Shown here piece by piece: positions 11,962 to 30,030 of a DNA stretch of 64,000 nt. Position 1 is the stretch's first letter; each line of letters opens with the position of its first letter. The stretch lies in contig OZ251459.1 of NCBI GenBank assembly GCA_965242525.1, positions 2,137,515 through 2,201,514 of the forward strand, written 5' to 3'. The notes beneath the pieces are model-generated. The model worked only from the letters and a program-made list of their open reading frames with translations, made no database searches and had not been told where the DNA came from. A program made the position numbers and the translations under genes. The DNA comes from an uncultured Candidatus Binatia bacterium. GTDB taxonomy: Bacteria; Desulfobacterota; Binatia; UBA9968; JAJDTQ01.

Positions 11962-11994
11962 ATATCGAGAGGTCAACACAATGACCGACAGGTA

Positions 11995-12023
11995 TTGACA
12001 CTTCACGGAGTATGGAGTATAGG
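11995..12023 (+). promoter_or_regulatory. sigma70-like promoter of the low-GC operon: -35 TTGACA, 17-nt spacer, -10 TATAGG
   Basis: ggtaTTGACActtcacggagtatggagTATAGGcc sits immediately at the GC-content drop. It is followed by an AGGAG Shine-Dalgarno (12060-12064) and an in-frame GTG at 12072. Confidence 0.45.
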
Positions 12024-12071
12024 CCCCGACTAACTGATGCTTGGCCGCTTTCCCATGACAGGAGTTGTACC

Positions 12072-13106
12072 GTGACAGAACACCACAAAATGCTCGAGGT
12101 GAATCAAATTGACTTCGACACTGAAAATCCCAGGATAAAAATGGCGTTGGAGAAATACGGTAGCCGTCTGAATGCCGAGCGCATTCATTTTGCCTTGCGC
12201 TCCGCTACCGAAGGTTCCAGCGGTACTTCGTCCTACTCCAGCCTGAGAGATTCAATACGCTCTAGTCATGGGGTCATCGCGCCAATCATCGTAAGACCTA
12301 AAGGCCACAGCTACGTCTGCATCGACGGAAATACCCGCCTGGCGATCTACAAACAGTTTCAAAGAGAAGAAATAGAAGGAGATTGGAGCAAAATCAAAGC
12401 CATTGTTCTCGATCATGCCGAACAGCGCGATATCGAAACCGTCCGTGTATCGGCACACCTGGTTGGCGCCCGAGAATGGCCTGCCTACGAAAAGGCAAGG
12501 TATCTTCATTATCTCCGTAATCAGCAGTGTATGGATTACAGCGAAATGATAGCTCTCTGTGGCGGCAACAAAAACGAGATCGAACGTCAGATCGACGCAT
12601 ACCACGACATGAACTCATATTACCGAGATAAGGTGGACGACACCGCTTTTCGTATCGACCGTTATAGCGGATTCGTAGAACTTCAACGGCCGCAGGTCAA
12701 GCAAGCCATTTTTGACGCAGAATTGGACCTAGAGGATTTTGGCGAGTGGATCCGCGATGGCAAAATATACCGCTTGGAGGATGTCCGCAAGTTGCCGAAA
12801 ATCCTTCGAGACGATGAAGCCAAGCGGGTTTTCCTTGAAGGTGGACCTCGCTCAATAGAAGACGCCATGAAGGTTCTCGATCAGAGAACAGGGATCGGGG
12901 ACTCTACGGACAAGGGGCAGACCAGAGTAGAACATGCCACCATCTACGAACTCGCGGACGCGCTCAGCCGGCGAATCAATGACATGCCCTATTCGCAAGT
13001 ACGGGAATTGCGGGAGAAGACTGACGACGACACGGCAGATCAAATTACGCGATTAGAAGATCTATCCGTCAGGCTACGTAATTTGCTGAACGATGTCACA
13101 GAGTGA
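12072..13106 (+). CDS. ParB/Srx-superfamily (DGQHR/DndB-like) protein, paralogue 1
   Basis: 'IAPIIVRPKGHSYVCIDGNTRLAIYKQF' fits the ParB N-terminal domain pattern (PI.VR...Y..IdG.hR..A). The listed ORF start 12012 lies upstream of the predicted -10, so SD+GTG at 12072 is preferred. The 3' end overlaps the next gene by 14 nt. Confidence 0.6.
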   Translation: MTEHHKMLEVNQIDFDTENPRIKMALEKYGSRLNAERIHFALRSATEGSSGTSSYSSLRDSIRSSHGVIAPIIVRPKGHSYVCIDGNTRLAIYKQFQREEIEGDWSKIKAIVLDHAEQRDIETVRVSAHLVGAREWPAYEKARYLHYLRNQQCMDYSEMIALCGGNKNEIERQIDAYHDMNSYYRDKVDDTAFRIDRYSGFVELQRPQVKQAIFDAELDLEDFGEWIRDGKIYRLEDVRKLPKILRDDEAKRVFLEGGPRSIEDAMKVLDQRTGIGDSTDKGQTRVEHATIYELADALSRRINDMPYSQVRELREKTDDDTADQITRLEDLSVRLRNLLNDVTE

Positions 13107-13536
13107 AACACACAGAAACCTGGTCCTCCAGGTCGCAAGAGCAATTGAGGACCGTTATGCCCAAATATCCGTCATTACCGATTTGCAGCAGAACCCTGGA
13201 GATACAGTGCCACCAATGATCTGCGGCCACCGCCCTGATGTTTACGCCTACGAAGAAGTACAGCGCCTCTGCATCGTTGCAGAGGCCAAGACCGATTCGG
13301 ACCTCGACAATCTTCATACGCAACGCCAGTTGATGGCCTTTATCAACTATCTTAGCGACAGAGAAAAGAGCTTGTTCATCTTGTCGGTAAAGGGCACCAA
13401 GTCCGACCACGGGAAGACTCTGCTGCGGTTCACTCATCGACTTCTGGCTGTAAAGAACGTGCCTCTTGAAATTTTCGATGGTCATGATTTCTGGTCCTTC
13501 AACCTACAGGACGAAACTACGTGGCATTTACTTTGA
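13093..13536 (+). CDS. small hypothetical protein with PD-(D/E)XK-like motif
   Basis: 147 aa. 'RPDVYAYEEVQRLCIVAEAKTD' gives a D..(E)AK arrangement typical of the restriction-endonuclease fold. The gene is translationally coupled on both sides. Confidence 0.4.
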   Translation: MSQSETHRNLVLQVARAIEDRYAQISVITDLQQNPGDTVPPMICGHRPDVYAYEEVQRLCIVAEAKTDSDLDNLHTQRQLMAFINYLSDREKSLFILSVKGTKSDHGKTLLRFTHRLLAVKNVPLEIFDGHDFWSFNLQDETTWHLL

Positions 13537-15020
13537 GAAAACCACCCAGCCTGGTGGCAAGACACGAAGCCTATGCCTATCAGCTCGATGCTTTAAGAGC
13601 CGTAAAGGCGCTTCCTTATGCCGCCATATTCCACGAGCAAGGGCTCGGTAAAACAAAGATAGCTATTGACTTGATGTTGCTGTGGCTATCCAATGACTTA
13701 GTGGACACTGTATTTGTGATTACAAAAAAGAGCTTGGTTCAAAATTGGTTTGATGAACTTACCTCTCACTCATACGTAACTCCTCGAATTCTTTCCGATA
13801 ACCGTCGCGAGAACAGCCTCGCACTAAACTCACCTGTATTGATCTATATTATGAACTACGAAGCAATCTCGGCAAATCTTCATTTGATCGAGGATTTTCT
13901 CATTACCTGTAGGGTTGGCGCAATCCTTGACGAAAGTCACAAGATCAAAAACCCGCAAGCAAGGGCATCGATCTGCCTTCACTCTATCGCCGACAAATTC
14001 TCGCGTAAGGTGATAATGACGGGAACGCCAGTGGCGAACCGTCCTTATGATCTTTGGTCGCAAGTCAAGTTTTTGGACGGAGGACAGTCTCTCGGGTCTT
14101 CTTTTGCTGATTTCAAAGCAACCTTTGATCTTCCCGGTCAGCCAAGTTGCACACAGGAATACAGTGAACGACTATCCAATATCATTGACAAGATTAGACA
14201 TTTCTCGGTGCGAGAGACAAAGCGTACCGTAGAATTGAGCCTACCCGACAAGACAATACTAACTCATTTCGTGAACATGGCGCCTCGCCAAGCGGTAATA
14301 TATGACTCCTACGTGACCGAAGCGGCCTACGAGATCAACCTTGGGGACGACCTGATTCTGGACAACGCCGAAGACATCCTGAAACGCCTGTTACGCCTGG
14401 TGGAGTGCGCCTCTAATCCTTTCTTGGTTGACAAGAGATACTCTGAGGTGCCAGGGAAGTTCTCCGAACTCTTGAAGCTTCTCCAGGAAATTGACTTACG
14501 AGCACATAAAGTGGTTTTGTGGACAGGGTTTGTTGATAATGTAGAATGGATAACTGCCCAATTGAAGGAGTTTTCGCCCTTGAAGGTTCATGGTCGTATG
14601 TCCATTGAGCAACGGAACCAGTCCATAAGCAGATTCAAAACCCACCAGAAACACCGTGTCTTTGTAGCCACGCCTGGCTCTGCAAAGGAAGGCTTAACTT
14701 TGACAGTAGCCAATCATGCTGTTTTCTACGATCGAAGCTTCAGTCTTGATGATTACCTCCAGGCGCAAGACCGAATTCATAGAATCTCTCAAACTGAAGA
14801 CTGCTATGTACACAACTTGATCGCCAAACAAACCGTGGATGAGTGGGTGGATGCTTTGCTAAACGCAAAACATATCGCTGCACAGCTATCTCAAGGTGAT
14901 ATTTCTCAAGCTGAGTTTGAGTCTTCCTTTACCTTCAATTTAGCCGAAATACTGGCAGACATATTAACTTCCAGGTCGCTCGCTTCCAGGAGTCAGGAGA
15001 ACGGAAAATGGCCGAAATAA
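13521..15020 (+). CDS. compact SNF2/SWI2-family ATPase (helicase-like translocase)
   Basis: Walker A 'GLGKT', DExH-like 'ILDESHKIKN', motif III 'MTGTPVANRPYDLW', motif VI 'QAQDRIHRISQ'. A GTG start overlaps the upstream gene. Confidence 0.85.
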   Translation: MAFTLRKPPSLVARHEAYAYQLDALRAVKALPYAAIFHEQGLGKTKIAIDLMLLWLSNDLVDTVFVITKKSLVQNWFDELTSHSYVTPRILSDNRRENSLALNSPVLIYIMNYEAISANLHLIEDFLITCRVGAILDESHKIKNPQARASICLHSIADKFSRKVIMTGTPVANRPYDLWSQVKFLDGGQSLGSSFADFKATFDLPGQPSCTQEYSERLSNIIDKIRHFSVRETKRTVELSLPDKTILTHFVNMAPRQAVIYDSYVTEAAYEINLGDDLILDNAEDILKRLLRLVECASNPFLVDKRYSEVPGKFSELLKLLQEIDLRAHKVVLWTGFVDNVEWITAQLKEFSPLKVHGRMSIEQRNQSISRFKTHQKHRVFVATPGSAKEGLTLTVANHAVFYDRSFSLDDYLQAQDRIHRISQTEDCYVHNLIAKQTVDEWVDALLNAKHIAAQLSQGDISQAEFESSFTFNLAEILADILTSRSLASRSQENGKWPK

Positions 15021-16051
15021 AGATCCTCAAGGAATCGGTGCAGGTAGTCAAGGAAGACTATGTGCATATCTACGAACTGAAGTTCCTGAAAGACAACCCT
15101 CGCGTATACGCGTGTACACATGAGTACCCGAATTTCGATGACTTGATGGAAGAGCAACAGCAAGACGTCATTTTCGATAAACTAAAGGAAGAGACGAGCG
15201 TCAAAAATCTCCGTCCTGAGATAGAACGGCATGGGGGCCTTATGGAGCCGATACTGGTTCGGCTCGATACACGCCAAGTCATTGAAGGCAATTCTCGCCT
15301 CGCTGTATACCGCCTGCTGTACGAAGGGACGAGGGAGAGCGACTGGGAATATATTCCGTGCAGCATGGTAAGTGGGCTAACAGAGCGTCAACAGGCCGCT
15401 TTTCTCAACGAAGTCCATGTGAAGGGCAAGACTCAATGGTCCCCCTACGAAAAGGCCAACTTCGCCTATGTCCGCAGGGAACGAGGTTGGAGTCTCAGTG
15501 ACATCGCCGAACTTTTCGGAGAGTCAGTAAATACGATTAGAACCCGAGTAAAGGTCATTGAAACCATGAAAGGGAACTCGGATGGCACAAAATCTCATTT
15601 CAGTCATTACGATGTACTAGTTCGAATACCTGCTATAGAGAAGGAGCTTTCTCAAAATGACGAGCTGCGCAATCTTCTTTACGCGGAGATCAAGAAGATC
15701 GATCCCAGAGACGACAAGAGCGCGAATGAGGACGAAACTGGCGAAGAGGACGAAAGCGGTTTCACCGCGCAGGAACTCAGGAGGAAACTGCCCGCGATCA
15801 TCGAGAAACCTAAGGTTTTGCGAAAATATATCGAAGGTGAAATAGATTTGGACGAAGGCTACCAGCGTGCGAAGATCAGCAACGCGGAAACCCGAGTTCG
15901 GAAAGCAAAAGGACTTTTGGAGGACGTTTCTCGAGAAGAGGTGACAAGGCTCGAACAGAATCGCTTCAATGCGTTCAAACAGGATGTACGGAGGATATCC
16001 CGCGTAGTGGAGCGCCTCAATGAGATCACAAAGGACCGTGAGACACCATGA
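15008..16051 (+). CDS. ParB/Srx-superfamily (DGQHR-like) protein, paralogue 2
   Basis: 'MEPILVRLDTRQVIEGNSRLAVYRLL' parallels the motif in the 12072 gene. ATG 15008 overlaps the SNF2 stop (15020). The 3' end overlaps the next start as ATGA. Confidence 0.55.
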   Translation: MAEIKILKESVQVVKEDYVHIYELKFLKDNPRVYACTHEYPNFDDLMEEQQQDVIFDKLKEETSVKNLRPEIERHGGLMEPILVRLDTRQVIEGNSRLAVYRLLYEGTRESDWEYIPCSMVSGLTERQQAAFLNEVHVKGKTQWSPYEKANFAYVRRERGWSLSDIAELFGESVNTIRTRVKVIETMKGNSDGTKSHFSHYDVLVRIPAIEKELSQNDELRNLLYAEIKKIDPRDDKSANEDETGEEDESGFTAQELRRKLPAIIEKPKVLRKYIEGEIDLDEGYQRAKISNAETRVRKAKGLLEDVSREEVTRLEQNRFNAFKQDVRRISRVVERLNEITKDRETP

Positions 16052-17688
16052 TTCCGTACAATGTACTGCTAGTCGAGCCCGGATACTTCAACAAGTATCC
16101 GCCGCTTGGGTTAATGAAGTTGGCAGCATATCATGGCGCTCGCGGTCGTGGCGACCGGGTCCGCTTCGTCAAAGGTGAGGATCGTGAAGTGTCGCTGGAG
16201 TCGTGGGATCGAGTTTATGTAGCTACATTGTTCAGTTTTGAATGGGCGCGTACTGCCGCGGCAATTGATTTTGCCATCCGGACCGTGCGCGGCCAGACAG
16301 AACGGGTATTTGTAGGCGGCATCGCCGCATCGCTTATGCATGAGCACTTTGAGAACGAACCACGATGGTCGGGTGTCCGTTTTATTAAAGGACTATTGAC
16401 TGATCCGCCGGCAGTTGCGCTGCGTTTATCAGCAGAAGATTGTGATTTTGGCTTTGACGACCACCAGGGACCCCCTATCGAGGAGTTGATTCCAGACTAC
16501 TCCATTCTCGATCAGATCGAATATTCCTATCCTGTCCGAGACGCCTACTTTGGATACGCTTCACGTGGTTGCGTTCGGAAATGTGCGTTCTGTGGCGTTC
16601 CTAAACTGGAAGGCGCTCAGCGCGAAATGCCTTCCCTTACTTCCTTGGTCAAAGGAATCGAAGATGCATACGGACCCAAGAAGGACCTGGTGTTGATGGA
16701 TAATAACGTCACGGCATCCCTGCGATACAAGGAGATAATTGCTGAAATCCGGGATCTCGGCTTCACGCCAGGCGCTAGGCTCGAACGCAGTGGGCGACCG
16801 CCGATCAAGCGACGCGTGGATTTCAATCAAGGCGTTGACGCGAGGATTCTTGCCAAGTCCCCGCTCTTTCTTAGGGAAATGGCAAAAATCTGTATCAGTC
16901 CTCTTCGTATCGCCTTTGACCACCTTGGGGTACGAAAAGTATATGAGACTTCTGTTCGAATGGCAGCACACCACGGAATCACCTCCTTATCAAACTATAT
17001 GCTCTATAACTTTATGGACACTCCCGCAGATCTATACGACCGCATGCGTTTGAATATTACCCTCAATAACGACTTGGGCATCCGTATTTGGTCATTTCCG
17101 ATGCGTTATCAGCCAGTCTATCTCAAGGACCGTTCCCACGTAGGCAAAAATTGGACGAGATACCAACTACGCTCCTTTCAGATTATGCTGCAGGCGACTC
17201 GAGGGGTTGTTAGCGGCAACCCTTCCTTCTTCATGCGGGCTTACGGAGAAGACAAACGCGACTTCGAACAACTTTTGAGTTTGCCACATGCTTTCATTTT
17301 TCACCGTGATTACTACGAGAGAGGACCAGGACGAGGCATCCGAGATGACTATGAGACGGCACGACGGCGCCTTTCCAAGTCTCAAGAACAGGAATTGCTT
17401 GGTTTGCTGGAAGGCTCGGACAGTGTACCGGGTTTTCGAAGGGATCGGCTTCGCTCTTTGGTAGCCGACCCTGGCATTGACACATCTATTCGTAGAGTCA
17501 TTCGATTTCACTTGCTGGATACAAAAGAGAAACCGCAGAACCCCATTCTGCCGCTCTTCCCCGACCTTAATCCTGATCCAGCTTTCCCTGACGACGATGA
17601 ACTTGTCGAGGACGCCGGACTCTTTGATCACGAACACGCCTTGGAACAATCTGAAAAGGCCATCAAAGGAAACCATCATGGTCAATGA
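16048..17688 (+). CDS. radical SAM enzyme with N-terminal cobalamin(B12)-binding-like domain (class B radical SAM-like)
   Basis: CX3CX2C in 'YASRGCVRKCAFCGV'. The N-terminus 'VLLVEPGYF..YPPLGLMKLAAYHGARG..VRFV' resembles the B12-binding domain of class B radical SAM proteins. Confidence 0.75.
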   Translation: MIPYNVLLVEPGYFNKYPPLGLMKLAAYHGARGRGDRVRFVKGEDREVSLESWDRVYVATLFSFEWARTAAAIDFAIRTVRGQTERVFVGGIAASLMHEHFENEPRWSGVRFIKGLLTDPPAVALRLSAEDCDFGFDDHQGPPIEELIPDYSILDQIEYSYPVRDAYFGYASRGCVRKCAFCGVPKLEGAQREMPSLTSLVKGIEDAYGPKKDLVLMDNNVTASLRYKEIIAEIRDLGFTPGARLERSGRPPIKRRVDFNQGVDARILAKSPLFLREMAKICISPLRIAFDHLGVRKVYETSVRMAAHHGITSLSNYMLYNFMDTPADLYDRMRLNITLNNDLGIRIWSFPMRYQPVYLKDRSHVGKNWTRYQLRSFQIMLQATRGVVSGNPSFFMRAYGEDKRDFEQLLSLPHAFIFHRDYYERGPGRGIRDDYETARRRLSKSQEQELLGLLEGSDSVPGFRRDRLRSLVADPGIDTSIRRVIRFHLLDTKEKPQNPILPLFPDLNPDPAFPDDDELVEDAGLFDHEHALEQSEKAIKGNHHGQ

Positions 17689-19186
17689 AGCAAGTGCTAT
17701 GACGACGACGACACGGCAGTCACTTGACTCGATTGGCAGCGACATTCTCAACCTAATTACCCTTGGAATGTACAATAACCCTCTTGCCATCTATCGCGAG
17801 TACATCCAAAACGCTGCGGATGCGCTTGCACGTTCTGGAAGTCGCACTGACGGCCAAGTGGCAATCCATTTTGACAAGTCCGCATCGTCCATAACGATTC
17901 GAGACACCGGACCAGGCCTATCACCGAAGTCCGCAAGACGCGCACTTTTGCCCATTGCCAAGAGCGAAAAGGAATTCCAGGCTGAACGCGGTTTTCGCGG
18001 CATCGGTCGCTTGTCCGGACTGGCTTTCGGCAAATCCGTCACCTTTCTTACGCGAGCACGAGGAGACCAGCCAGCAACAAGTGTCAAATGGGACGGACTG
18101 AAACTTCGGACAAACATTGACCAGCGCAAACCGATTGAACGGGTACTCAAGGAAGCTGTTACGGTAGAACCGCTAACAAGACCAGATTTCCCGCCACACT
18201 TCTTCGAGGTCCAAGTGAACGGTATCGCGCGACACGCAGCGGGACTGATACTCAATCGAGACGCGGTCCGGACGTACATTGGCGAAGTATGTCCTGTCCC
18301 TATTTCCCGATCCTTCCCCTTTGCAACCCGGATCCTCGCTTTATTCCAAGCGGAAGCTCCTTTATTCGCGCTGAACCTTGTCTTGGATGGCACCCCCGGC
18401 CCTGTCACACGCCCCTTTGACGACGCGATTCGATTTTCGGATGACAAGCTAGACAAGTTCACGGAGTTTCAGGAAATCAGGATCCCATCGGTAGACCGAG
18501 AAGGACATGCGGCAGTTGGCTGGATTGCACATTCAAATTATTTGGGCGCTATTCCCAAGGAACACGCCATTCGAGGTGTTCGAGCACGTGCGGGCAACAT
18601 ACAGATTGGGAACGAAGCTGTCTTTGATCACCTTTTTTCTGACGATCGCTTTAATCGCTGGTGTGTTGGCGAACTCCATATCATGGACTCGCGTATCATC
18701 CCCAATGCTCGCCGTGACTACTTTGAGCCGGGTCCACACATCCGAAACCTGGAGAACCAGCTTATCGCTGTATTTCGAGAAGTAGTTGCGCGATGCAGGA
18801 AGGCATCCGCAGAACGCAACAGGGAACGAAGGTTGCAGTCCGGATTGCGGGAAATCGAGGATGCTTATCACTTGGCACAATCCGGCTATTTGTCCATGGG
18901 AGATTCTCAAGCCTTGATCGCGCGCGGTCTCAACCGTCTCCAAGACTTCCGGAACAACTGGAGCGAGATGAACGCCTGTGCAAAGACGGAATTGGAAAAC
19001 CTTGAATCGAACCTTCAAAAATTCCAGCCTTCACATAGTCATCTACCCGTGGCTAATTTGTCAAAGTTGGAAGCGGCAACGTACAGAAAGCTTTTTCACG
19101 CTTTGGTAGAGACGTCCCCTTCCCCGCGCATTGCCAAAGAAACAATCGAAGCTGTCCTTGTCCACCTACAGCGCAGGGTCGCATGA
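17678..19186 (+). CDS. MORC/MutL-like GHKL (HATPase_c) ATPase
   Basis: Bergerat-fold boxes: N-box 'REYIQNAADAL', G1 'ITIRDTGPGL', G2 'FRGIGRLSGLAFG'. ATG 17678 overlaps the radical SAM stop (17686-17688). Confidence 0.75.
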   Translation: MVNEASAMTTTTRQSLDSIGSDILNLITLGMYNNPLAIYREYIQNAADALARSGSRTDGQVAIHFDKSASSITIRDTGPGLSPKSARRALLPIAKSEKEFQAERGFRGIGRLSGLAFGKSVTFLTRARGDQPATSVKWDGLKLRTNIDQRKPIERVLKEAVTVEPLTRPDFPPHFFEVQVNGIARHAAGLILNRDAVRTYIGEVCPVPISRSFPFATRILALFQAEAPLFALNLVLDGTPGPVTRPFDDAIRFSDDKLDKFTEFQEIRIPSVDREGHAAVGWIAHSNYLGAIPKEHAIRGVRARAGNIQIGNEAVFDHLFSDDRFNRWCVGELHIMDSRIIPNARRDYFEPGPHIRNLENQLIAVFREVVARCRKASAERNRERRLQSGLREIEDAYHLAQSGYLSMGDSQALIARGLNRLQDFRNNWSEMNACAKTELENLESNLQKFQPSHSHLPVANLSKLEAATYRKLFHALVETSPSPRIAKETIEAVLVHLQRRVA

Positions 19187-19199
19187 GAGGAAACGGCGT

Positions 19200-20684
19200 T
19201 CAGAGTTTCTCTACGCGGCTTGCCCTCGAACGCAGAAAGTTGAAATCGGCGTCGTCACCGACATCCGGCATCGCGAGCAAGCGTTCGATAAAAGTCTCCG
19301 GCTGACGCTGCTTCCGCTGTGTCTTCAAGCCGCCCCGCCATTCCAGCAGGACGACTTCTTCTCGAAGCTGTTCGCCGGTCACCGTCGAAGGGCGTGTCCG
19401 AAAGAGGTCGATGCCCATGACCCGGTAGTGCAACGACCGGGCCAAGTCGGCCAGGAGTCGGCCCGTGGGGATACGGACCCGCAGATACGACGCCTGGTCG
19501 CCGACCACGTAGGCGAGCCTGGCCCCCGGCTTGAGGACGGCGCGGAGCGACGCGAGGTGTTTCGCCATGCCGCCGAAGTAGAGCCGCGTGACGCGCGGAT
19601 ACAACCGCTCGAAGCCGGAGGTCTTGCCCAACTCGATACGGCGCTTCTCGATGGCTTCGGCGATGTCCCGTATCTCGGCATGGTCGGCAACCTCACGATC
19701 GTCCGTGTCCGCCTTATAGACGCCCCGGGTGTTGGACCGGATCAGGTTCCGTTTCATGGACCGCAATTCCTGCCGGTCGCGCACCAGTCCCAGGATGACG
19801 GACTCCAACCGTGTGGTGCGCGTGTAGTCCTTTTCGTTGGGATACGGCGGGGAGGTGATCACGGTATCGACGGACCCCGGCTCCAGCGCTCGATGGATCG
19901 CGCGGGCGTCCGCCTCCACGACCCGGGACGGCGCGTCCGTCCGGCCCTTGAGGAGTTCCAGGTCGCCGACGATGGTTCGGAAGCAGTCGAGCCAGGCGTC
20001 GACGGCCGGCGCGTCGTCCTTGATCCGGCCCACGCCGACTTCGGGACCGAACTTCAGGTTCCCGATGCGCAGCACCAGCGCGTTGGCAAGCGCCAGGCGG
20101 CCATAGGGCCGCAGTTGCGGCCGGTCGTGCCGGTCCATGGCGTCCAGCAGGGTCAGCGTCTTGTGGAGGGGCAGCGGACTGATGGAGTCCTTCAGCAGCA
20201 GTTTCGACCGGTCGGGGGGAAGACCCTGCAACACGGGTGGTCCGCTCCCGTTCGCGGCGAAGAGCGGAAGCCCCGCGGCCTCCCGGATGCCCTGCCGTTC
20301 CAGCGTCCTTCGCGCCGCCGCCGCAACCCGACGGGAATAGTCCGAAAGCGCCGCCGGGTCGGCCGACCAATCGACCTTCACCGAACTCGCAAAAGACCCC
20401 ATGGGGTTCGACTCGACGCCCACGCTGGGAATGCCGAGTTTCTTGCACTCCACCAACGTCGTGCCCGTGCCGCAGAAGGGGTCCAGGACCGTATGGGAGC
20501 GGTCCACGCCGAGCCGTTCCATGTAGTCCCTTACCAAGTGGGGCGGGAACGACAGGACGAACCGATACCATTGATGGGCCGGACGGTCTTCAGGCCGCAG
20601 CCTGTTCCGGTCGCCTTGGGTTCCGCCGGTGTCGGCAACCGCGGCCCGGCCGCTGCGCGTATCGGAAATCAGATCCGCCATCGG
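19200..20684 (-). CDS. SAM-dependent amino-methyltransferase, probably a DNA N6-adenine/N4-cytosine methyltransferase
   Basis: Motif I 'LDPFCGTGTTLV' and motif IV 'ITSPPYP' are separated by ~215 aa. The likely start is 'MADLISD' at 20684. The gene is convergent on the low-GC operon (stops 13 nt apart). GC is host-like. Confidence 0.55.
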   Translation of the reverse strand, partial: PMADLISDTRSGRAAVADTGGTQGDRNRLRPEDRPAHQWYRFVLSFPPHLVRDYMERLGVDRSHTVLDPFCGTGTTLVECKKLGIPSVGVESNPMGSFASSVKVDWSADPAALSDYSRRVAAAARRTLERQGIREAAGLPLFAANGSGPPVLQGLPPDRSKLLLKDSISPLPLHKTLTLLDAMDRHDRPQLRPYGRLALANALVLRIGNLKFGPEVGVGRIKDDAPAVDAWLDCFRTIVGDLELLKGRTDAPSRVVEADARAIHRALEPGSVDTVITSPPYPNEKDYTRTTRLESVILGLVRDRQELRSMKRNLIRSNTRGVYKADTDDREVADHAEIRDIAEAIEKRRIELGKTSGFERLYPRVTRLYFGGMAKHLASLRAVLKPGARLAYVVGDQASYLRVRIPTGRLLADLARSLHYRVMGIDLFRTRPSTVTGEQLREEVVLLEWRGGLKTQRKQRQPETFIERLLAMPDVGDDADFNFLRSRASRVEKL

Positions 20685-20745
20685 AGTTCCTGGCCGAACG
20701 GGTCGAGGGAGTCCAGCCTTTCCATGGCAACACGTGCGAGAACCG

Positions 20746-21459
20746 TCAGTCCACCGGAACGCAGGTGACCTCCACCCGTCCGTCACCGTGCAGTCGAACC
20801 GCGTTGACCGTGCCGGCGTAGGTCGGAGACCCCGAGTAGTAGGCGGGCACCCCGTCTTCGCCCACGCGCACGGCGCGGTTCCAGTGGCCCAGAGCCACGT
20901 AGTCGGCGCGGCTGGCGGCCAAGTTCTCCTGCCGGATCAGCCACGAGCCCAGCAGCAGGCCCGCCCGGGGCGCGTCCTCCACGTAATGGCCGTGGGCCAC
21001 CGCCAACTGCCAGCGGGTGCGCCGCTCGGGCGGCTCGGGCAGGGGCATCATGTCCAGGTAGTCCACGTGGGGACGGCCCCATACCTCCAGGTCCAGCTCG
21101 GGGAAGCCGCTCCGGTCCTCGGTGAGGCCCAGCACGCGCACGTTACCCGCGCCGGCGAACTCGGACCGGCGATAGACCGAATCAGGAGTCAGGGGGTCGT
21201 GGTTGCCCGGCAGGACCACGATGGGGAGGCCGGAGTCGGCCATGACTCCGGCCGCGTCCTCGATGAACCGGGGACCCTGGCGGTTGTGGTCGAAGGTGTC
21301 CCCCGCCAGGATCACCAAGTCGGCGCCCTGGGCGCTCGCAATCGAGAGCACCTGTTGCAGCACCGGCAGGTTGCCGGAATCGTCTTCGTTCAGGACGCTG
21401 TCCGCGCCCAGGTGGAGGTCCGATGTGTGGACGACGAGGACTTCACGCGGTGCGTTCAT
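20746..21459 (-). CDS. calcineurin-like metallophosphoesterase (SbcD/Mre11-like fold)
   Basis: 'VLVVHTSDLHLG', 'LVILAGDTFDH', 'VVLPGNHD' metallophosphoesterase motifs. Likely start 'MNAPREV' with AGGGAG upstream. It lies directly upstream of the methyltransferase on the same strand. Confidence 0.7.
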   Translation of the reverse strand: MNAPREVLVVHTSDLHLGADSVLNEDDSGNLPVLQQVLSIASAQGADLVILAGDTFDHNRQGPRFIEDAAGVMADSGLPIVVLPGNHDPLTPDSVYRRSEFAGAGNVRVLGLTEDRSGFPELDLEVWGRPHVDYLDMMPLPEPPERRTRWQLAVAHGHYVEDAPRAGLLLGSWLIRQENLAASRADYVALGHWNRAVRVGEDGVPAYYSGSPTYAGTVNAVRLHGDGRVEVTCVPVD

Positions 21460-21661
21460 GCTGGCGGTTTCTCCCTTCCCGGTGCGCCGCGGCCTGCGGG
21501 GACGCGGCTCCGCGGGCCGCAAGCGCGTCCGTCCCGGGGGCCTGGACCCGCCGGACACCGAGGGCCTGCCGGACGGAGGCGCCCTCTTCCAACGGCATGT
21601 GGTCGGGAGCCCTGGCGCCGGCTGCGGGACGGAAACCGCTGCGGAAGGCCTGCGGCCCGGG

Positions 21662-22684
21662 CTACTTCATCAACTCGGCGTTGATCCGGTCGAGTTGGAG
21701 CTGGGACGGCTGCACCGCGTCCTGGGTCAGATACGCCAGGGGCGTGTCGCAGAGGTTCAGGTCCTCCACGAACTCCGGCCGCTCTTCATCCAGGTAGATG
21801 AGGCCGGTCAGGAACTTGCGCTCGGCCACCGCGGCGTGGAGCGCCGTCACCGCCTGCATCCGGTTGGTGGGGTCGTAGTTGCGTCCGAGCTTGTGCAGCG
21901 TCACGCGGGAACCGTCGTGGAGCGTGACCTCCTGGTCGGTCCCCTCCTCGTAGTCCACCTCGATGTTCTCGTACGGCGGAATGAAGTCGATGTCGTGGAG
22001 CGGGTCCAGGTGCTCCCGGATGTACTTGAGGCTCTTGGTGGAGCCGTGATGGTCGTTGAACGTGACGCAGGGGCTCAGCACGTCGAGGATGGCGCTCCCC
22101 TTGTGGGCCACCGCGCCCTGGATCAGGGGCGCGAGCTGCTTCCGGTCCCCGGAGAAGCTCCGGGCCACGTAGGTGGCGCCCAGGGTGATGGCCAGCTCGC
22201 ACAGGTCGATGGCGGGCATGTCGTTGATCTTGCCGCCCTTCATCACCGTGCCCTCGTCCGCGGTGGCCGAGAACTGGCCCTTGGTCAGGCCGTACACGCC
22301 GTTGTTCTCGATGACGTAGGTGATATTCACGTTGCGGCGCATCATGTGGCAGAAGTTCCCCAGCCCGATGGCCGAGGTGTCGCCGTCGCCGGAGATGCCC
22401 AGAGGGATCATCCCGTGGTTGGCCACGTTGGCCCCGGTGGCCACCGACGACATCCGCCCGTGCACCGCGTTGATGCCGAAGGCCTGGTTCATGAAGTAGT
22501 TGGGGGTCTTGGACGAGCAGCCGATGCCGCTCAGCTTGATCACGTTGCGCGGGTCCACGCTGCTGGCGAAGAACGCGCGCATGATGGACGCGGAGATGGC
22601 GTCATGGCCGCAGCCGCGGCACATGGTGGATTCCGCCCCCTTGTAGTCCTTTTCCGTCAGATCGACGCGATTTGCTTTTGCCAT
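21662..22684 (-). CDS. korB: 2-oxoacid:ferredoxin oxidoreductase beta subunit (TPP-binding)
   Basis: 'MCRGCGHDAI...GIGCSS' Cys/TPP-binding region typical of OFOR beta subunits. Confidence 0.8.
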   Translation of the reverse strand: MAKANRVDLTEKDYKGAESTMCRGCGHDAISASIMRAFFASSVDPRNVIKLSGIGCSSKTPNYFMNQAFGINAVHGRMSSVATGANVANHGMIPLGISGDGDTSAIGLGNFCHMMRRNVNITYVIENNGVYGLTKGQFSATADEGTVMKGGKINDMPAIDLCELAITLGATYVARSFSGDRKQLAPLIQGAVAHKGSAILDVLSPCVTFNDHHGSTKSLKYIREHLDPLHDIDFIPPYENIEVDYEEGTDQEVTLHDGSRVTLHKLGRNYDPTNRMQAVTALHAAVAERKFLTGLIYLDEERPEFVEDLNLCDTPLAYLTQDAVQPSQLQLDRINAELMK

Positions 22685-24507
22685 GGCTCGTCCACCTTCG
22701 TTTCGATTTCCTCTTCGGTCGTCTCCCGATGCTCCCGGATCTGCCGGACGATCTCGCCCGCGGTGGCGGGGAGGCCGTCGTAGATCAGCACGCTCACGAT
22801 CCTCGTGGCGAACTCCGGGTACTCCTCCTTGAAGATCGCCGCCATCTGCGCGTCCCGGTTCTGCTCCATGAGATAGACCACCTCATGCGACGCCAGGAAC
22901 TCCCCGACCTCTTCCGTCAGGGGCAACGCCCTGAGCAGCAGGTGGTCGGTCTCCACCCCCGCAGCCCGAAGCCGGTCCCGGGCCTCCCGCACCGCCTCGT
23001 AGCTCGACCCGAAGCAGACCACGCCGGTGTTCACGCCCGGGCGGCTCTCCACCCACGGCTTGGGCACGAAACCGCGGGCGGTCTCGTGCTTGAGCCGCAG
23101 CCGGTCCAGGGTCTCCTTGTAGTCCTTCTCGTCTTCCGAGTAGCGCGCCTGGGCGTCATGCCCCGAGCCCCGGGCGAAGTAGGCCGCCTGGGGATGGCGG
23201 TTGCCGGGGATGGTGCGCTGGGGCACGCCGTCGCCGTCCACGTCCCGGTACCGCCCGAACCCTCCCTGCTTCTCGATGTCCTCGGCGCTCACGAGCTTGC
23301 CCCGGTCGAAGGGCTCCTGCAGCAGTTCCAGCGGGTCGGAACCCCAGAGGTTCATGCCCAGGTCCAGGTCCATCATGACGAACACCGGGGTCTGGAACCG
23401 GTCCGCCAGGTCGAAGCTCCGGCGCCCCAGGTCGAAGCACGACTTCATGTCGTGGGGGATCAGGACGATGTGGCGCGTGTCGCCGTGGGAGGCCAGGTGC
23501 ATCAGGTGGATGTCGGCCTGCTGGGTGCGGGTGGGAAGCCCGGTGGAAGGGCCGCCGCGCTGGATGATGAAATAGACTCCGGGGATCTCGGCGAAGTACT
23601 GGAGGCCGATGGTCTCGTTCATCAGCGACAGGCCGGGGCCGGAGGTGGAGGTCATGGCCCTGGCGCCCATCCAGCCCGCGCCCGCCACCATGTTGGTGGC
23701 GCTGATCTCGTCCTCGGCCTGGATCACCGCATAGGTGGCCTTGCCGTCGTCGTCCTTGCGCAACCGCGGCAGGTACCGTTCCAGCGCCTCGGCCAGGGAG
23801 CTGGACGGGGTGATGGGGTACCAGGCCACGAACGTGACCCCGCCGTAGATGGCCCCGATGGCGCAGGCGGTGTTGCCCTCGGTGACGATCTTCCCCTTGT
23901 TGCCGTCCGGGATCTGCTCCAGCATGGCGATGGACTGGCTCGAACCGTTGTCGCGCATGTGGTCGTAACCGAGCTCGATGCAGAGCAGGTTGGACTCGAT
24001 GACCGCGGGCTTGTTGCCGAAGGTGTCGCTCAACACCGCGCGGATGGTCTCCATGTCGATGCCGAACAGGTAGGCCAGCGCTCCCACATAGACCATGTTG
24101 CGCTGCTTGGCCCTGAGCGGACCCGCCTCCACGTGTTTCTGCACGAGGCCGTTGGCCGGGACCCCGAGGTACTGCACGCCGCCGCGCTTCAGGGAGTCGG
24201 GCAACGGCTTGGTGTCGTCGTAGAGGATCAGGCCGCCGTCCCGGACCCGGTAGATGTCCTTGTCCGCGGTGTCGTCGTTGAACATCACCATGACGTCGAT
24301 CACGTCCTTCCGCCCGAGGTAGCCGTCGGCGTTGGCCCGGATCTGGTACCAGGTGGGCAGGCCCTGGATGTTGGACGGGAACATGTTCTTGGAGGAGCAC
24401 GGGATCCCCATCTTGAATATGGACTTGAACAGGATGTTGTTGGACGAAGCGCTTCCCGAACCGTTGGCGGTAGCGACGCAGATGCTGAGATCGTTGACCA
24501 CGGGCAT
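22657..24507 (-). CDS. korA: 2-oxoacid:ferredoxin oxidoreductase alpha subunit
   Basis: 616-aa alpha/gamma-type OFOR subunit ('GNTACAIGAIYGGVTFVAWYPITPSSS'). It overlaps korB by 28 nt. Confidence 0.8.
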   Translation of the reverse strand: MPVVNDLSICVATANGSGSASSNNILFKSIFKMGIPCSSKNMFPSNIQGLPTWYQIRANADGYLGRKDVIDVMVMFNDDTADKDIYRVRDGGLILYDDTKPLPDSLKRGGVQYLGVPANGLVQKHVEAGPLRAKQRNMVYVGALAYLFGIDMETIRAVLSDTFGNKPAVIESNLLCIELGYDHMRDNGSSQSIAMLEQIPDGNKGKIVTEGNTACAIGAIYGGVTFVAWYPITPSSSLAEALERYLPRLRKDDDGKATYAVIQAEDEISATNMVAGAGWMGARAMTSTSGPGLSLMNETIGLQYFAEIPGVYFIIQRGGPSTGLPTRTQQADIHLMHLASHGDTRHIVLIPHDMKSCFDLGRRSFDLADRFQTPVFVMMDLDLGMNLWGSDPLELLQEPFDRGKLVSAEDIEKQGGFGRYRDVDGDGVPQRTIPGNRHPQAAYFARGSGHDAQARYSEDEKDYKETLDRLRLKHETARGFVPKPWVESRPGVNTGVVCFGSSYEAVREARDRLRAAGVETDHLLLRALPLTEEVGEFLASHEVVYLMEQNRDAQMAAIFKEEYPEFATRIVSVLIYDGLPATAGEIVRQIREHRETTEEEIETKVDEPWQKQIASI

Positions 24508-24655
24508 TTCCTTCTCCAGGGTTGTTTCGGGAGACAGATTCTTGACGGGTCCCTATTGTACCAACACAACGTAGCCTTAACAAGGACTTAACCGTTGCCC
24601 CGAGGACTTTGCCGCTCCTCGGGCCGGGGGATGCGGCGACCCGACGGCCTCCTCC

Positions 24656-25516
24656 CTATCCCGGCGTGTAGTTCTGGTCGGACTCCCAGAACTCCTCGAT
24701 CTCCTTCCATGCCTTGCGCACCACGTCGTCGATGTCGAGCGCCTTGGCGTACTGGAGCACGTCGCCCATGGTCACGATGCCGGTCAGGTCGCCGCCCTCG
24801 CCGGCCACCGGCATGTGCCGGAACCCGTTGTCGCGCATCTTCGCCAGCACTTCCTGGACCGGCGACGCGGGGGCCATGACCAGCGGGTCGGGCGTCATCA
24901 CCTCGGCCACCGGCACCTGCCCCATGTCCCTGTCTTCCAGGGCGACCCGGGTGAGCACGTCCCGCTCGGTGAAGATGCCGCGGACCTTGCCCTCCGCGGA
25001 GACCATGACGCAACCCGTCCGGCCGCGCGCCAGCCTGTCGATGACCTCGGTCACCGGCGTGCCCGCGTCCACCGTGGGCACCGCGCCGGACACCACCTCC
25101 CCCACCGTCCGGGTGTCGCGCAGGTCGGCGCCCAACTCCACCACCAGGTTGAGTATCCGCCGCATGGAGACCAGGCCCGCGGTGCGGCGATCGTCGTCAT
25201 AGACCAGCAGGTGCCGGGACCGGCCCTTGTACATCATGCCCAGCACATCGACGATGGGCGTCCGCTCCGGCACCCCGGGAAGCGGCGTGGTCATGACCCG
25301 GCGCACGGGGGTCTTGTGGACGTCGAGGGTCCGGTTCATCACCCGCCGCAGGACGTCCTGCTCGGTGAAGATGCCGGACGGCTCGTCGCCCTCGGTGACG
25401 ACCACGCGCCCCACCCGGCGATCCACCATGAGCCGGGTCGCTTCCCGTACGGTGCTCGACGGCTCGGCCGTGATGATCGAGCGCGTCATGATCTCGCTTA
25501 CCCTGTTGGTCAGCAT
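24656..25516 (-). CDS. CBS-domain tandem (four CBS motifs) protein
   Basis: Repeated CBS pairs ('VREATRLMVDRRVGRVVV', 'VIDRLARGRTGCVMV', 'EVLAKMRDNGFRHMPV'). Confidence 0.75.
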   Translation of the reverse strand: MLTNRVSEIMTRSIITAEPSSTVREATRLMVDRRVGRVVVTEGDEPSGIFTEQDVLRRVMNRTLDVHKTPVRRVMTTPLPGVPERTPIVDVLGMMYKGRSRHLLVYDDDRRTAGLVSMRRILNLVVELGADLRDTRTVGEVVSGAVPTVDAGTPVTEVIDRLARGRTGCVMVSAEGKVRGIFTERDVLTRVALEDRDMGQVPVAEVMTPDPLVMAPASPVQEVLAKMRDNGFRHMPVAGEGGDLTGIVTMGDVLQYAKALDIDDVVRKAWKEIEEFWESDQNYTPG

Positions 25517-25595
25517 GGAAAACCTCCTTGGCGCCCTGCGCGGCCCCGCGGTCGCCGGGGACCGAAGCGTTGCCTCCGGCCGCGTATCATACTAA

Positions 25596-25793
25596 GGAAC
25601 CTCTGGACAATCGGTACAGGCGACATGAGCGCGTCCTTCGACTCCGCTTCGCTACGCTCAGGACGAACGGGGATAGCTCCGCTTCGCTCAGGACGAACAG
25701 GGAGAGATCCTCTACGCTCAGGACGAACGGGGATAGGAGTGTCAGGGTGAGGGAATCCATCCTGGATGTCTCGATTCTTCACAGGCTCCCTGA
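25596..25793 (+). repeat. MITE-like dispersed element (family A) with three internal ~30-bp tandem units 'cgcttcgct(acg)ctcaggacgaacggggatag'
   Basis: Termini 'ggaacctctggacaatcggtacagg' ... 'cctggatgtctcgattcttcacaggctcc' are imperfectly inverted. The same core is found at six other sites in the window. Confidence 0.7.
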
Positions 25794-25856
25794 TTGTAGT
25801 GCCCATCGCGCGCGACGCCAAGCATAAACACGGCAAGCCGTCTTCCGCAATTTCCC

Positions 25857-27011
25857 ATGGAACCCTTCTCGCTCTACGTCCACATCCCCTACTGCGTCAG
25901 CAAGTGCCCCTACTGTGACTTCAACTCCCACGTGGCCGCCCGCATCCCCGAGGGGGAGTACACCGGCGCCGTGGCCCGGGAGCTGCGCCATCATGCCGGT
26001 TCGGAGCGGTGGGCCAACCGGTCCGTCAGGACGGTCTTCTTCGGCGGCGGCACGCCTTCGACCTTCCACGGGGACAGCATCGCCGCGCTGCTCGACCAGG
26101 CCGCCGGGCTGTTCCGCTTCGAGGAGCGGATGGAGGTCACGCTGGAAGCGAACCCCGGGGCCGCGGACGCCGGCCGGTTCCGGGACTACCGGGGCTGCGG
26201 CGTCAACCGCATCAGCGTCGGCGCCCAGACCTTCGACCCCGGGCTGCTGCGGTTCCTCGGCCGCAGCCACGGGGCCGCGGAGACGCGCCGCGCGCTGGAG
26301 GGCGTCCGGGACGCAGGCTTCGACAACTTCAGCCTCGACCTGATCTACGCGGTCCCGGGGCAGACCGTGGACGGCGTGGACCGGGACCTCAAGCTGGCCC
26401 TGGAAAGCCGGCCGCCCCACCTGTCCGCCTACAACCTCACCATCGAGGAAGGGACGCCCTTCCACGCCCGCTACCGCCAGGGCCGGCTGCGCCCGCTGGA
26501 CGAAGAGACCGAGGTCGAGATGGCCCGGCGCATCGACCTCACCCTCGCCCGGGCCGGGCTGCGGCGGTACGAGATCTCCAACTACGCGCGCCCGGGCTTC
26601 GAATCGCGCCACAACGTCAACTACTGGGAGGGCGGCGACTACCTCGGCGTGGGCGCCGGCGCCCACAGCCATTACCGAAGGCCCGGAGACCCCCTGGGCG
26701 AGCGCTGGCAGAACGAGCGGTCCCCCGCGGCCTACATGCAGCGCACGCGCGAAGACGGCCACGCGGTCACCCAACGCGAGCGTCCGGGACCGCGCCAGGC
26801 CATGGCGGAACACCTGTTCACCGGGCTGCGGATGATCGAAGGGGTCCCGGTCCCCGCCTTCCGGCGCCGTTTCGGGACCACGCCCCGGGACGCTTTCCCC
26901 GCGGTCGGGGAGTGGCTCGGCGACGGCCTCCTGGCCGAAGAAGGCCAACGCCTCCGCTTCGCGCCCGAAGGGCTGCTGCTGGCGGACGAACTCTTCCTTC
27001 GACTCGTGTGA
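25857..27011 (+). CDS. hemW: radical SAM heme chaperone HemW / oxygen-independent coproporphyrinogen-III oxidase family
   Basis: 'LYVHIPYCVSKCPYCDFNS' CX3CX2C near the N-terminus and HemN/HemW C-terminal domain. Confidence 0.85.
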   Translation: MEPFSLYVHIPYCVSKCPYCDFNSHVAARIPEGEYTGAVARELRHHAGSERWANRSVRTVFFGGGTPSTFHGDSIAALLDQAAGLFRFEERMEVTLEANPGAADAGRFRDYRGCGVNRISVGAQTFDPGLLRFLGRSHGAAETRRALEGVRDAGFDNFSLDLIYAVPGQTVDGVDRDLKLALESRPPHLSAYNLTIEEGTPFHARYRQGRLRPLDEETEVEMARRIDLTLARAGLRRYEISNYARPGFESRHNVNYWEGGDYLGVGAGAHSHYRRPGDPLGERWQNERSPAAYMQRTREDGHAVTQRERPGPRQAMAEHLFTGLRMIEGVPVPAFRRRFGTTPRDAFPAVGEWLGDGLLAEEGQRLRFAPEGLLLADELFLRLV

Positions 27012-27094
27012 ACGGAGGCTCGCCGGTCATCCGGCCGGGCGGCAACGCGCGTCCGGGCGGAAGCCGCTGCCGGGGGCCGTCAGGCGCCCACCCG

Positions 27095-28369
27095 TCACGT
27101 GCCCATCTCCCAGGAGGACAGGTAACGCTTCTGTTCCCGGGTGAGCTTGTCGATCCGGGCGCCCATGGCGGCGAGCTTGAGGCTCGCCACCCACTCCACC
27201 AGGGACGAGGGGACGTCATGGACCCGGGCCGACAGCTCGTCCCCCTGCTCGACCGCCCATTCGGAGGCCAGGGCCTGGGTTGCGAAGCTCATGTCCATGA
27301 CCGAGGCCGGATGGCCTTCGGCCGCGGCCAGGTTCACCAGTCGGCCTTCGCCGAGCAGGAACAGGCGCTTCCCCCCGGGCAGGGTGTAGCAGTCCACGTG
27401 GTTCCTCACGTTGCGCTCGCGCTTCACCGCCATCTCGGTGAGGCCCTCGATGTCGATCTCGATGTCGAAGTGGCCGGAGTTGCAGATGACGGCGCCGTCC
27501 TTCATGGCCCGCAGGTGCTCCTTGCGGATCACGTGCATGTCCCCGGTCAGGGTGATGAAGAGGTCGCCGGTCCGGGCGGCATCCTTCATGGGCATCACGT
27601 CGAAGCCGTCCATGGACGCCTCCAGGGCGCGCACCGGATCCACTTCGGTGACCGCCACCCTGGCCCCCATGCCCCGGGCCCGGGACGCCACGCCCCGGCC
27701 GCACCAGCCGTAGCCGGCCACCACCACCCGTTTGCCGGCCAGCAGCACGTCCGTGGCCCGGATGACGCCGTCGATGGTGGACTGGCCGGTGCCGTAGCGG
27801 TTGTCGAACAGGTGCTTGGTGGCGGCGTCGTTGACCGCGATGATGGGGATCCTGAGGGCCCCGTTGGCCTCCAGGGCGCGCAGCCGGATGACCCCGGTGG
27901 TGGTCTCCTCCATGGACGCCACCATGCCGGAGGCCAGGTGGGCGTACTCCTGGTGCAGCATGGACACCAGGTCGGCGCCGTCGTCCATGGTGATGACGGG
28001 CCGGTGGTCCAGCGCCGCCCGCAGGTGCCGGTAGTAGGTGTCGTGGTCCTCGCCGCGCACCGCGAACACCGGCACGCGCTCCTTCTTCACAAGGGCCGCG
28101 GCCACGTCGTCCTGGGTCGAAAGCGGGTTGGACGCGCACAGCGCCACGTCCGCGCCCCCGGCCTTCAACGTGCGCACGAGGTTGGCGGTCTCCGCGGTGA
28201 CGTGGAGGCAGGCCGAGAAGCGCAGGCCCTTCAGGGGCTTCTCCTGCTCGAACCGGGCGCGCACGCTCCGCAGCACCGGCATCTCCTGGTCCGCCCACAG
28301 CACCCGCTTCCAACCGTCCGCGGCAAGGCCCGGGTCCGCCACGTCGAACTGCAACTTCGATCTCGCCAT
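27095..28369 (-). CDS. ahcY: adenosylhomocysteinase
   Basis: 424 aa with NAD-binding region 'VVVAGYGWCGRGVA' and a full-length match to AhcY. Confidence 0.95.
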   Translation of the reverse strand: MARSKLQFDVADPGLAADGWKRVLWADQEMPVLRSVRARFEQEKPLKGLRFSACLHVTAETANLVRTLKAGGADVALCASNPLSTQDDVAAALVKKERVPVFAVRGEDHDTYYRHLRAALDHRPVITMDDGADLVSMLHQEYAHLASGMVASMEETTTGVIRLRALEANGALRIPIIAVNDAATKHLFDNRYGTGQSTIDGVIRATDVLLAGKRVVVAGYGWCGRGVASRARGMGARVAVTEVDPVRALEASMDGFDVMPMKDAARTGDLFITLTGDMHVIRKEHLRAMKDGAVICNSGHFDIEIDIEGLTEMAVKRERNVRNHVDCYTLPGGKRLFLLGEGRLVNLAAAEGHPASVMDMSFATQALASEWAVEQGDELSARVHDVPSSLVEWVASLKLAAMGARIDKLTREQKRYLSSWEMGT

Positions 28370-28451
28370 GTTCCTCTCCCTCTCCGGCGGCCCGCGCGCA
28401 CCGGGGCCGCCCGACGGTCACCGCCGGAAGGGCGCCGGGTGGGTCTCCAGC

Positions 28452-29627: not shown

Positions 29628-29666
29628 GGATGTTCCCTGTCCGGCCCTTCCTTCCCGGAAGGGCCG

Positions 29667-29942: not shown

Positions 29943-30030
29943 GGGCATGGGCCAGCGTCCCGGCTCCCCGGCCGGGCGCGCCGCGGCCTCCAACCCACTA
30001 GCAAAAAACCGGGCGGGAAGAAACCGCGGG

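Follow-up and report, generated by a model that had tools for sequence, protein, structure and literature searches.

We analysed a stretch of 64,000 nt from an uncultured Candidatus Binatia bacterium (contig OZ251459.1; hereafter the window), in which a gene for a DNA amino-methyltransferase (M) on the minus strand converges on the last gene of a six-gene cassette, encoding a GHKL ATPase, with 13 nt left between the two stop codons. A metallophosphoesterase gene (MPE) had been placed directly upstream of M on the same strand by an earlier reading made from the sequence alone (the sequence-only reading), and its PF00149 match and the coordinates of the open reading frames (ORFs) bear this out, with an intergenic gap of 64 nt. 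In our best explanation, to which we assign a probability of about 0.8, M is the surviving half of a restriction-modification (R-M) pair, the restriction endonuclease gene (R) of which was replaced stop-to-stop by a foreign cassette; the 13-nt spacing would be the scar of this swap, and MPE would be a gene of the host.

Exchange of the restriction gene for a cassette

An exact-sequence look-up of the korB protein of the window (2-oxoacid:ferredoxin oxidoreductase) led to two sibling contigs, L083 and L084. The sequence-only reading had proposed a comparison with orthologous loci that lack the island, and the siblings proved to be such loci, as both carry M together with R and no cassette. The gene order in L083 is korA-korB-MPE-M-R, with an M of 451 aa, followed on the opposite strand by the gene for a 530-aa AAA_22 ATPase; its korB and korA proteins are 100% and 99.7% identical, respectively, to those of the window, its M is 97% identical to the core of the window M at the protein level, and its R matches the REase_II model with an E value of 3e-103. 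The blastn alignment of the two contigs is interrupted by a segment without homology (Table 1), both ends of which fall on stop codons. The left breakpoint lies directly past the TAG of the AAA gene, where GGATGTAG is followed by CTGGCC in L083 and by ATATCG in the window. The right breakpoint lies at the stop codon of M, which reads GGGCGGC TGA CGG in L083 and GGGCGGC TTG AAG ACA in the window, and the last position of the window that is homologous to both siblings, 19328, corresponds to the first base of the TGA in these. A segment of 1052 bp, from the stop codon of M to that of the AAA gene and including the whole of R, was exchanged for a cassette of 7366 bp, and the TGA of M was lost or shifted out of frame by the swap.

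With its stop codon lost at the breakpoint, the frame of M runs on for 42 codons to the first in-frame stop; only by chance is this stop 13 nt away from that of the GHKL gene. We read this joint directly from the sequence (19170-19230): the GHKL ORF on the plus strand ends in ...GTC GCA TGA, with the stop at 19184-19186, and the M ORF on the minus strand ends in TCA (TGA) at 19200-19202, so that the 13-nt stop-to-stop spacing given by the sequence-only reading is correct. All 11 aligned homologues of M (from more than 8000 matches) end 2-9 residues, mostly 2-3, past an invariant ...VVLLEW, and only the ORF of the window extends beyond this family C-terminus, by 42 residues. The 126 nt in question (19203-19328) have a GC content of 0.56, compared with 0.67 in the remainder of the M gene. 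The last 42 codons of M are foreign cassette trailer DNA, not methyltransferase sequence, and an annotation that presents them as part of a ‘methyltransferase’ should be read with this warning in mind. A hidden Markov model (HMM) search found no relic of R in the tail; the segment FIERLL of the tail, considered as a relic of the N-terminus of R (IIERIF), was supported by neither the HMM search nor tblastn.

The sequence-only reading had remarked that a terminator would not fit between the two genes. This arises, like the tight spacing itself, because the tail of M is the 3' trailer of the island read on the opposite strand. This trailer, the 141 nt from the GHKL stop to the breakpoint, is the place where a terminator of the cassette would be expected, and none is recognisable there. 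An Rfam scan of 9000-26000 gave no match either. The chance of meeting at least 42 codons without a stop in unrelated DNA is, by simple arithmetic, (61/64)^42 or about 0.13; a run of this length into foreign DNA is unremarkable, and the spacing needs no special explanation for this reason.

The same joint was found in a second island-bearing contig, L143, which was assembled independently from another sample. It carries korA-korB-MPE-M, with an M of 490 aa of which 42 form the tail, then the 13-nt spacer and the convergent GHKL gene, shares 93.7% identity with the window across the MPE-M-GHKL junction, and differs from it by one substitution in a spacer of the same length. This contig bears on two other explanations of the joint. 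The first is that the 13-nt convergence is a selected regulatory device, in which M and the cassette are set against each other by mutual transcriptional interference or antisense control. The region 18900-19600 contains no terminator-like hairpin on either strand, and the spacer length as well as both stops are kept in L143, as such a device would lead one to expect. Nevertheless, the geometry follows from the first in-frame stop in foreign DNA, its conservation in L143 reflects common ancestry, neutral evolution is seen in the tail that is overlapped (see below), and the predicted folding of the region around the joint is not stronger than that of shuffled sequence (z 0.3-0.4). We consider a regulatory origin very improbable, and regard the convergent geometry as a junction scar rather than a designed feature.

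The second is an assembly chimera of two organisms differing in GC content. The window has a GC content of ~68%, interrupted by a sharp block of ~50% at ~12.0-19.3 kb, with an abrupt step of ~18 points at either end. The six genes of the island have GC contents of 0.46-0.52 (0.50-0.58 at third codon positions, GC3), compared with 0.67 (GC3 0.84) in the M core and 0.70 (GC3 0.89) in MPE. The statement of the sequence-only reading that M and MPE resemble the flanks in GC content accordingly holds for MPE and the M core and fails for the 126 nt with which the M ORF ends. The step at both ends is what a chimera would produce; yet the joint recurs in L143 with 6% divergence across it, and L083, a single unbroken contig, is syntenic with the window on either side of the cassette, which leaves a chimera with a negligible probability.

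Table 1. Positions of the genes and segments discussed in the text, and the blastn correspondence of the window with sibling contig L083.
Feature	Window position	Strand	Basis or remark
MoaA	5874-6923		far side of the variable site
OCD	6990-8075		far side of the variable site
MoCF	8124-9113		far side of the variable site
NikA-like ribbon-helix-helix (RHH) protein	9150-9677		
AbiEii-like/DUF6036 nucleotidyltransferase	9674-10240		
AAA_22 ATPase, 530 aa; stop is the left breakpoint	10369-11961	+	Pfam AAA_22; 96.2% DNA identity to L083 up to 11961
Replacement cassette, 7366 bp, ~50% GC	11962-19327	+	no counterpart in L083; composition; domains
ParB-like gene	12012/12090-13106	+	
Small protein, 147 aa	13093-13536	+	
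SNF2 helicase	13521-15020	+	
Second ParB-like/helix-turn-helix protein	15008-16051	+	
Radical-SAM-like protein with CxxxCxxC	16048-17688	+	
GHKL (HATPase_c_3) ATPase, last cassette gene, start approximate	17678-19186	+	PF13589, E 1e-11
Spacer separating the convergent GHKL and M stops	19187-19199	.	gaggaaacggcgt, 13 nt, read from sequence
Read-through tail of M, 42 extra codons (LKTQRKQ...RVEKL) and stop 19200-19202	19200-19328	-	cassette 3' trailer in antisense
M core, 451 codons; M half of a Type II module (M followed by R)	19329-20681	-	Pfam, PADLOC, homologue ends, sibling M, pN/pS
MPE, calcineurin-like, 237 aa	20746-21459	-	PF00149, E 1e-13
korB and korA (2-oxoacid:ferredoxin oxidoreductase), anchor upstream of MPE	21662-24507	-	synteny in L136-L138 and L143
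L083 1-13344	32519-19328		98.2% DNA identity, blastn
L083 14397-16049	11961-10309		96.2% DNA identity, blastn
L083 13345-14396 (1052 bp, holds R)	11962-19327 (7366-bp cassette)		no homology, blastn

The methyltransferase and the loss of its restriction partner

M is an amino-methyltransferase, matching Pfam N6_N4_Mtase (PF01555) above the gathering score (E 3e-11) and the PADLOC model MTase_II (PDLC03224) in two stretches (E 4e-35). The profile classification that the sequence-only reading had recommended thus places it among the Type II DNA amino-methyltransferases. Motif I (DPFCGTG) and motif IV (SPPY) occupy residues 102-108 and 312-315 of the 528-aa M ORF, respectively, and both are invariant across the homologue alignments; residues 77-127 align to positions 163-212 of the PF01555 profile, and residues 289-324 to the N-terminal motif IV region of PDB 2zie, SPPY being aligned to SPPY. 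The alpha-like order recognised by the sequence-only reading, motif I before motif IV with a long insert, was confirmed with ~200 residues between the two; relative to the order usual in PF01555, it is circularly permuted. We take the SPPY motif to suggest an N4-cytosine-type target; together with the C5-cytosine methylases found beside the same endonuclease family (see below), it makes cytosine a plausible target of M. Judged by homologue lengths, M starts with the ATG at 20681 and MPE with that at 21459. Homologues of M number more than 8000, are typically 441-451 aa long and ~70% identical, and occur in phyla including Binatia, Chloroflexota, Cyanobacteria, Acidobacteriota, Verrucomicrobiota and Planctomycetota. 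A database look-up of the exact M and radical-SAM protein sequences of the window found neither on record.

The family of M was examined in 82 genome loci. Its sole conserved neighbour in these loci is a gene for a ~265-aa protein, immediately downstream on the same strand (58/82 by clustering), which matches the PADLOC model REase_II (PDLC03404) end to end with an E value of 1e-116. When R was scored by HMM in the 78 loci with at least 1 kb of sequence downstream of M, it was full-length in 61, frameshifted or truncated in four and absent in 13; the decay of R with M kept is a recurrent event in the family (17/78). The conserved gene order shows that the family supplies the methyltransferase of a Type II module that has been widely transferred and in which M is followed by R. 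A cognate restriction gene adjoins M in those 61 loci and in L083, and none was found in the window, where the best tblastn match to R had an E value of 0.04. We accordingly file the M of the window as an orphaned member of a Type II R-M family. Its motifs I and IV, its MTase_II match and the REase_II gene downstream of most family members are those of a Type II R-M system; it differs from such systems in lacking R, in its foreign tail of 42 residues and in the motif order permuted relative to PF01555.

R itself has no match in NCBIfam or Pfam, a PDB search with it was empty, and the cluster records gave no name for the system. The same endonuclease family occurs on small mobilizable plasmids of Klebsiella and Salmonella and on a Paracoccus plasmid, beside C5-cytosine methylases; these plasmid relatives carry generic names, and the neighbouring C5 methylase on the Klebsiella plasmids is annotated as ‘M.AplI’. 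In the siblings, 39 conserved N-terminal codons of R are in frame and lack ATG, GTG or TTG (L083 13345-13480; L002, a metagenome contig described next, about 3215-3347). An ATT at L083 13363, 7 nt after GGAAAGGAGG, aligns with the initiator Met of the family, and the R of the siblings may use a rare ATT start, which would attenuate R, or may be truncated at its N-terminus. A separate case of R loss with M retained was noticed in L001 (11183-11320) and L002 (3214-4033), two near-identical metagenome contigs: an internal deletion has removed almost the whole of R in L001, whose M is 90% identical to that of the window, and R is intact in L002. The context of the module in this pair differs entirely (STAS-GPP34 ... 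PPK2), which shows that the M-R module is mobile.

Whether M has remained under constraint can be judged from the ratio of non-synonymous to synonymous differences per site (pN/pS, Nei-Gojobori) between the alleles of the window and L143. The core of M showed 34 synonymous and 19 non-synonymous differences (pN/pS 0.20), and the tail two synonymous and 10 non-synonymous ones (pN/pS 1.48), a difference between core and tail that is significant by Fisher's exact test (p = 0.004). The core is still under purifying selection, and the tail behaves like non-coding DNA. These values also bear on the idea that M is a dying pseudogene, inactivated by the stop loss and the 42-residue extension and awaiting deletion. 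Such a fate would agree with the non-native C-terminus, with the neutral evolution of the tail and with the loss of R, since protection is no longer needed once this partner is gone. Nevertheless, all catalytic motifs and invariant family columns are intact, neither of the two alleles, which differ by about 5-6%, contains a frameshift or stop, and the pN/pS of the core is similar to that of the flanking GHKL gene (0.23; MPE, 0.13). We consider it unlikely that M is a pseudogene.

The following course of events would account for the data. An ancestor of the window strain would have carried the horizontally spread Type II module, M then R on the same strand, at a site that takes up cargo. Recombination would then have exchanged the segment between the stop codons of M and the AAA gene (1052 bp, all of R) for the 7.4-kb low-GC cassette in the opposite orientation, whereby M lost its TGA and came to be read through 42 codons of the cassette 3' trailer. 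The M protein may have kept its DNA methyltransferase activity, as a solitary enzyme. An R-M system that gives up R and keeps M would follow the tolerated route of decay, given the asymmetry of R-M addiction, since the opposite order of loss would be lethal. It is probable that the cassette works independently of M and that MPE has no functional tie to either.

Solitary (orphan) DNA methyltransferases are known to stem from R-M systems in which R has decayed. The M of the window resembles them in that R is lost and M is kept and constrained, an outcome shared with the 17 family loci above, and differs from them in that R was not eroded by mutation: it was cut out and a multi-gene cassette put in its place in a single step, with a breakpoint that removed the stop codon of M as well. 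In this respect the feature is an ordinary one, a solitary methyltransferase of a known R-M family at a site of cargo turnover.

Several observations weigh against the replacement of R as we have set it out. (i) The exchange left no signature of a mechanism: terminal direct or inverted repeats and a target-site duplication are absent at 11962/19327, no integrase marks the site, and the window holds no tRNA genes. (ii) The flanks of the window are nearer to the R-bearing L083 (98.2%) than to the island-bearing L143 (about 97%; window 18127-32519), implying that the histories of alleles and strains disagree and that co-existing strains have recombined; if alleles were exchanged, the divergence of the M core used for pN/pS could be partly older than the loss of R. 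(iii) An AlphaFold model of M, built with 25 homologues, reached a mean pLDDT (predicted local distance difference test) of only 54.7, too poor to judge the effect of the tail on activity. (iv) In L086, one of 51 loci related to the island, a different N6_N4 methylase (324 aa, PF01555 in canonical order) overlaps the first gene of the cassette, and a methylase as accessory of such cassettes is not unthinkable. A recombination breakpoint within M was sought in the three-way site patterns of the window, L083 and L143 and was rejected, the patterns being mosaic with no clean breakpoint. The end sequences of the cassette have no match in the other cassette loci.

The phosphoesterase and the variable site

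MPE matches PF00149 with 52.4 bits (gathering cut-off 21.5) over profile positions 3-188 of 191. Only its N-terminal part matches the SbcD/Mre11 models, with scores under every curated cut-off; the best of these matches is to TIGR00619 (52.7 bits against a cut-off of 77.65, positions 3-87 of 252). MPE shares with SbcD/Mre11 the motifs that align in the N-terminal part, and some sources name its homologues ‘SbcCD nuclease subunit’. It differs in length (237 aa compared with 380-390 aa for SbcD in the NCBIfam equivalog models) and in having korB and M as neighbours and no adjoining SbcC-like partner.

The homologues of MPE form a graded series of 97-60% identity, typical of vertical descent. In the 82 loci of the M family, neither MPE nor korAB was found within 10 kb of M (0/82 in each case). 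In relatives of the window, MPE follows korB irrespective of what comes next. In L138, whose MPE is 78% identical to that of the window, korA-korB-MPE is directly followed by convergent MoCF-OCD-MoaA, with no M and no AAA gene. L136 (83%) has an AAA_22 ATPase gene between MPE and MoCF, and L137 (83%) a YadA-type adhesin together with an AAA gene, both without M. L083 and L084 (96-99%) have the R-M module and the AAA gene, and M with the cassette is found in the window (100%) and L143 (97%). We read MPE as a conserved, vertically inherited host gene after korAB, and its pairing with M, suggested by the sequence-only reading, as only positional: because MPE follows korB in L136-L138, which lack M, the ‘pair’ consists of a core gene bordering a cargo site and one item of cargo. 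The site between MPE and the MoCF/AAA genes is, by this comparison of gene orders, a variable cargo hotspot in the lineage. The sequence-only reading had also considered that the pair was a separate remnant of an R-M-like system, interrupted by insertion of the island. Of its three options, this one comes nearest to what was found. It stands in so far as M is a remnant of an R-M system, and falls in two points, as MPE is a syntenic host gene and the island replaced R from the stop of M to the stop of the AAA gene and did not merely insert.

The site resembles defence islands and hotspots, since one and the same inter-gene position is empty in one relative and taken up in others by an AAA ATPase gene, a gene for a YadA adhesin, an R-M module or the cassette, with an AbiEii-like pair nearby; it differs from them in that no integrase, tRNA or repeats accompany it and that each breakpoint coincides with a stop codon. 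It offers a clean natural example of a defence module ousted by another, with the methylase left in place under selection: empty, R-M-bearing and cassette-bearing alleles of one site occur in close relatives, and the breakpoints are exact to the base.

Some further variation was seen on the far side of the site. In the window, MoCF is separated from the AAA gene by the genes for the NikA-like RHH protein and the AbiEii-like nucleotidyltransferase (Table 1), and the gap between MoCF and the AAA gene in L136 is only 134 nt. The two genes are a further item of cargo at the same hotspot, possibly a type IV toxin-antitoxin pair. The AAA_22 ATPase gene, too, belongs to the variable cargo, as L136, L137 and L083 have it and L138 does not; it has no PADLOC match.

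The cassette and its relation to the methyltransferase

The more interesting object at this locus is the neighbouring cassette of radical-SAM and GHKL genes (with SNF2 and two ParB-like genes). Homologues of the radical-SAM-like protein number more than 7000, with identities of about 70%. In the 51 related loci, the GHKL gene adjoins the radical-SAM-like gene almost always, and the block of ParB-like, small-protein, SNF2 and second ParB-like genes accompanies these two in about 24, in varying order and orientation. The closest relatives of the cassette lie on contigs of 3-4 kb. No system in PADLOC v2 or NCBIfam matches the six genes, and a full-text literature search found no description of a radical-SAM/GHKL/SNF2/ParB system. 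The cassette (loci L085-L128) has the look of a defence or DNA-modification system that is as yet undescribed.

The sequence-only reading had offered M as the protective modification partner of this operon. M would then be, or would have become, the self-marking partner of the cassette, as in the systems BREX, DISARM and Hma, which combine a methylase with a helicase or ATPase. M does adjoin the cassette, its core has stayed under purifying selection after the loss of R, the SNF2 protein matches the helicase models DpdE, ZorD, DrmD and HmaA, and the L086 cassette has the overlapping methylase described above. Nevertheless, M and its own R were both in place here before the cassette arrived, and M is convergent with the operon and not co-transcribed with it. 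A homologue of M was found in none of the 51 island-type loci, and no cassette gene lay within 10 kb of M in the 82 M loci, so that comparison lends the proposal no support. A motif scan of the 51 loci detected an adjoining amino-methylase in L086 alone, and this methylase is from another family, the window M giving no tblastn match in L086 at E <= 1e-6. We hold a partnership of M with the cassette to be quite unlikely. The likeness to Hma, DISARM and BREX lies in a DNA methylase beside an SNF2 helicase, which partly matches the HmaA and DrmD models, and a GHKL ATPase. The differences are that the GHKL and radical-SAM proteins of the window match no PADLOC model, that M is not co-conserved with the cassette and that the M family has its own R elsewhere.

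A related speculation, to which we give only a slim chance, is that M was kept since the incoming cassette relies on the methylation mark already there, or on the convergent transcript with its overlap, for discrimination of self from non-self or for tuning its own expression. If this were true, a new defence system would have hijacked the modification half of the system that it displaced.

Several minor observations concern the cassette and its relatives. A 767-aa DndB-like protein with a HEPN domain is a conserved neighbour of the radical-SAM/GHKL pair in nine loci (L091, L093-L095, L102, L103, L107, L108 and L114), some of which lack the ParB-small-SNF2-ParB block. In L085, a D12-class methylase lies 1 kb away and appears to belong to a separate module. 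At the upstream end of the cassette in the window, a sigma-70-like TTGACA-N17-TATAGG at 11996-12024 was seen by eye, and was discarded as it fell below the criteria of the scanner. An MPE-like ORF, 29% identical to the MPE of the window, follows the ParB-like gene of the cassette in two near-identical metagenome loci, L088 (9761-10405) and L090 (11843-12487); as only two of the 51 loci show it, the association is probably a coincidence.

Short dispersed repeats of about 45-110 nt occur in the window at about 25630-25790, 38416-38570, 59367-59475, 60923-61163 and 61904-62221, and in L083 at 7982-8093. A 113-bp copy of the repeat present in L083 is absent from the corresponding point of the window (24591), and the repeat looks mobile, resembling miniature inverted-repeat transposable elements (MITE) or repetitive extragenic palindromic (REP) elements.

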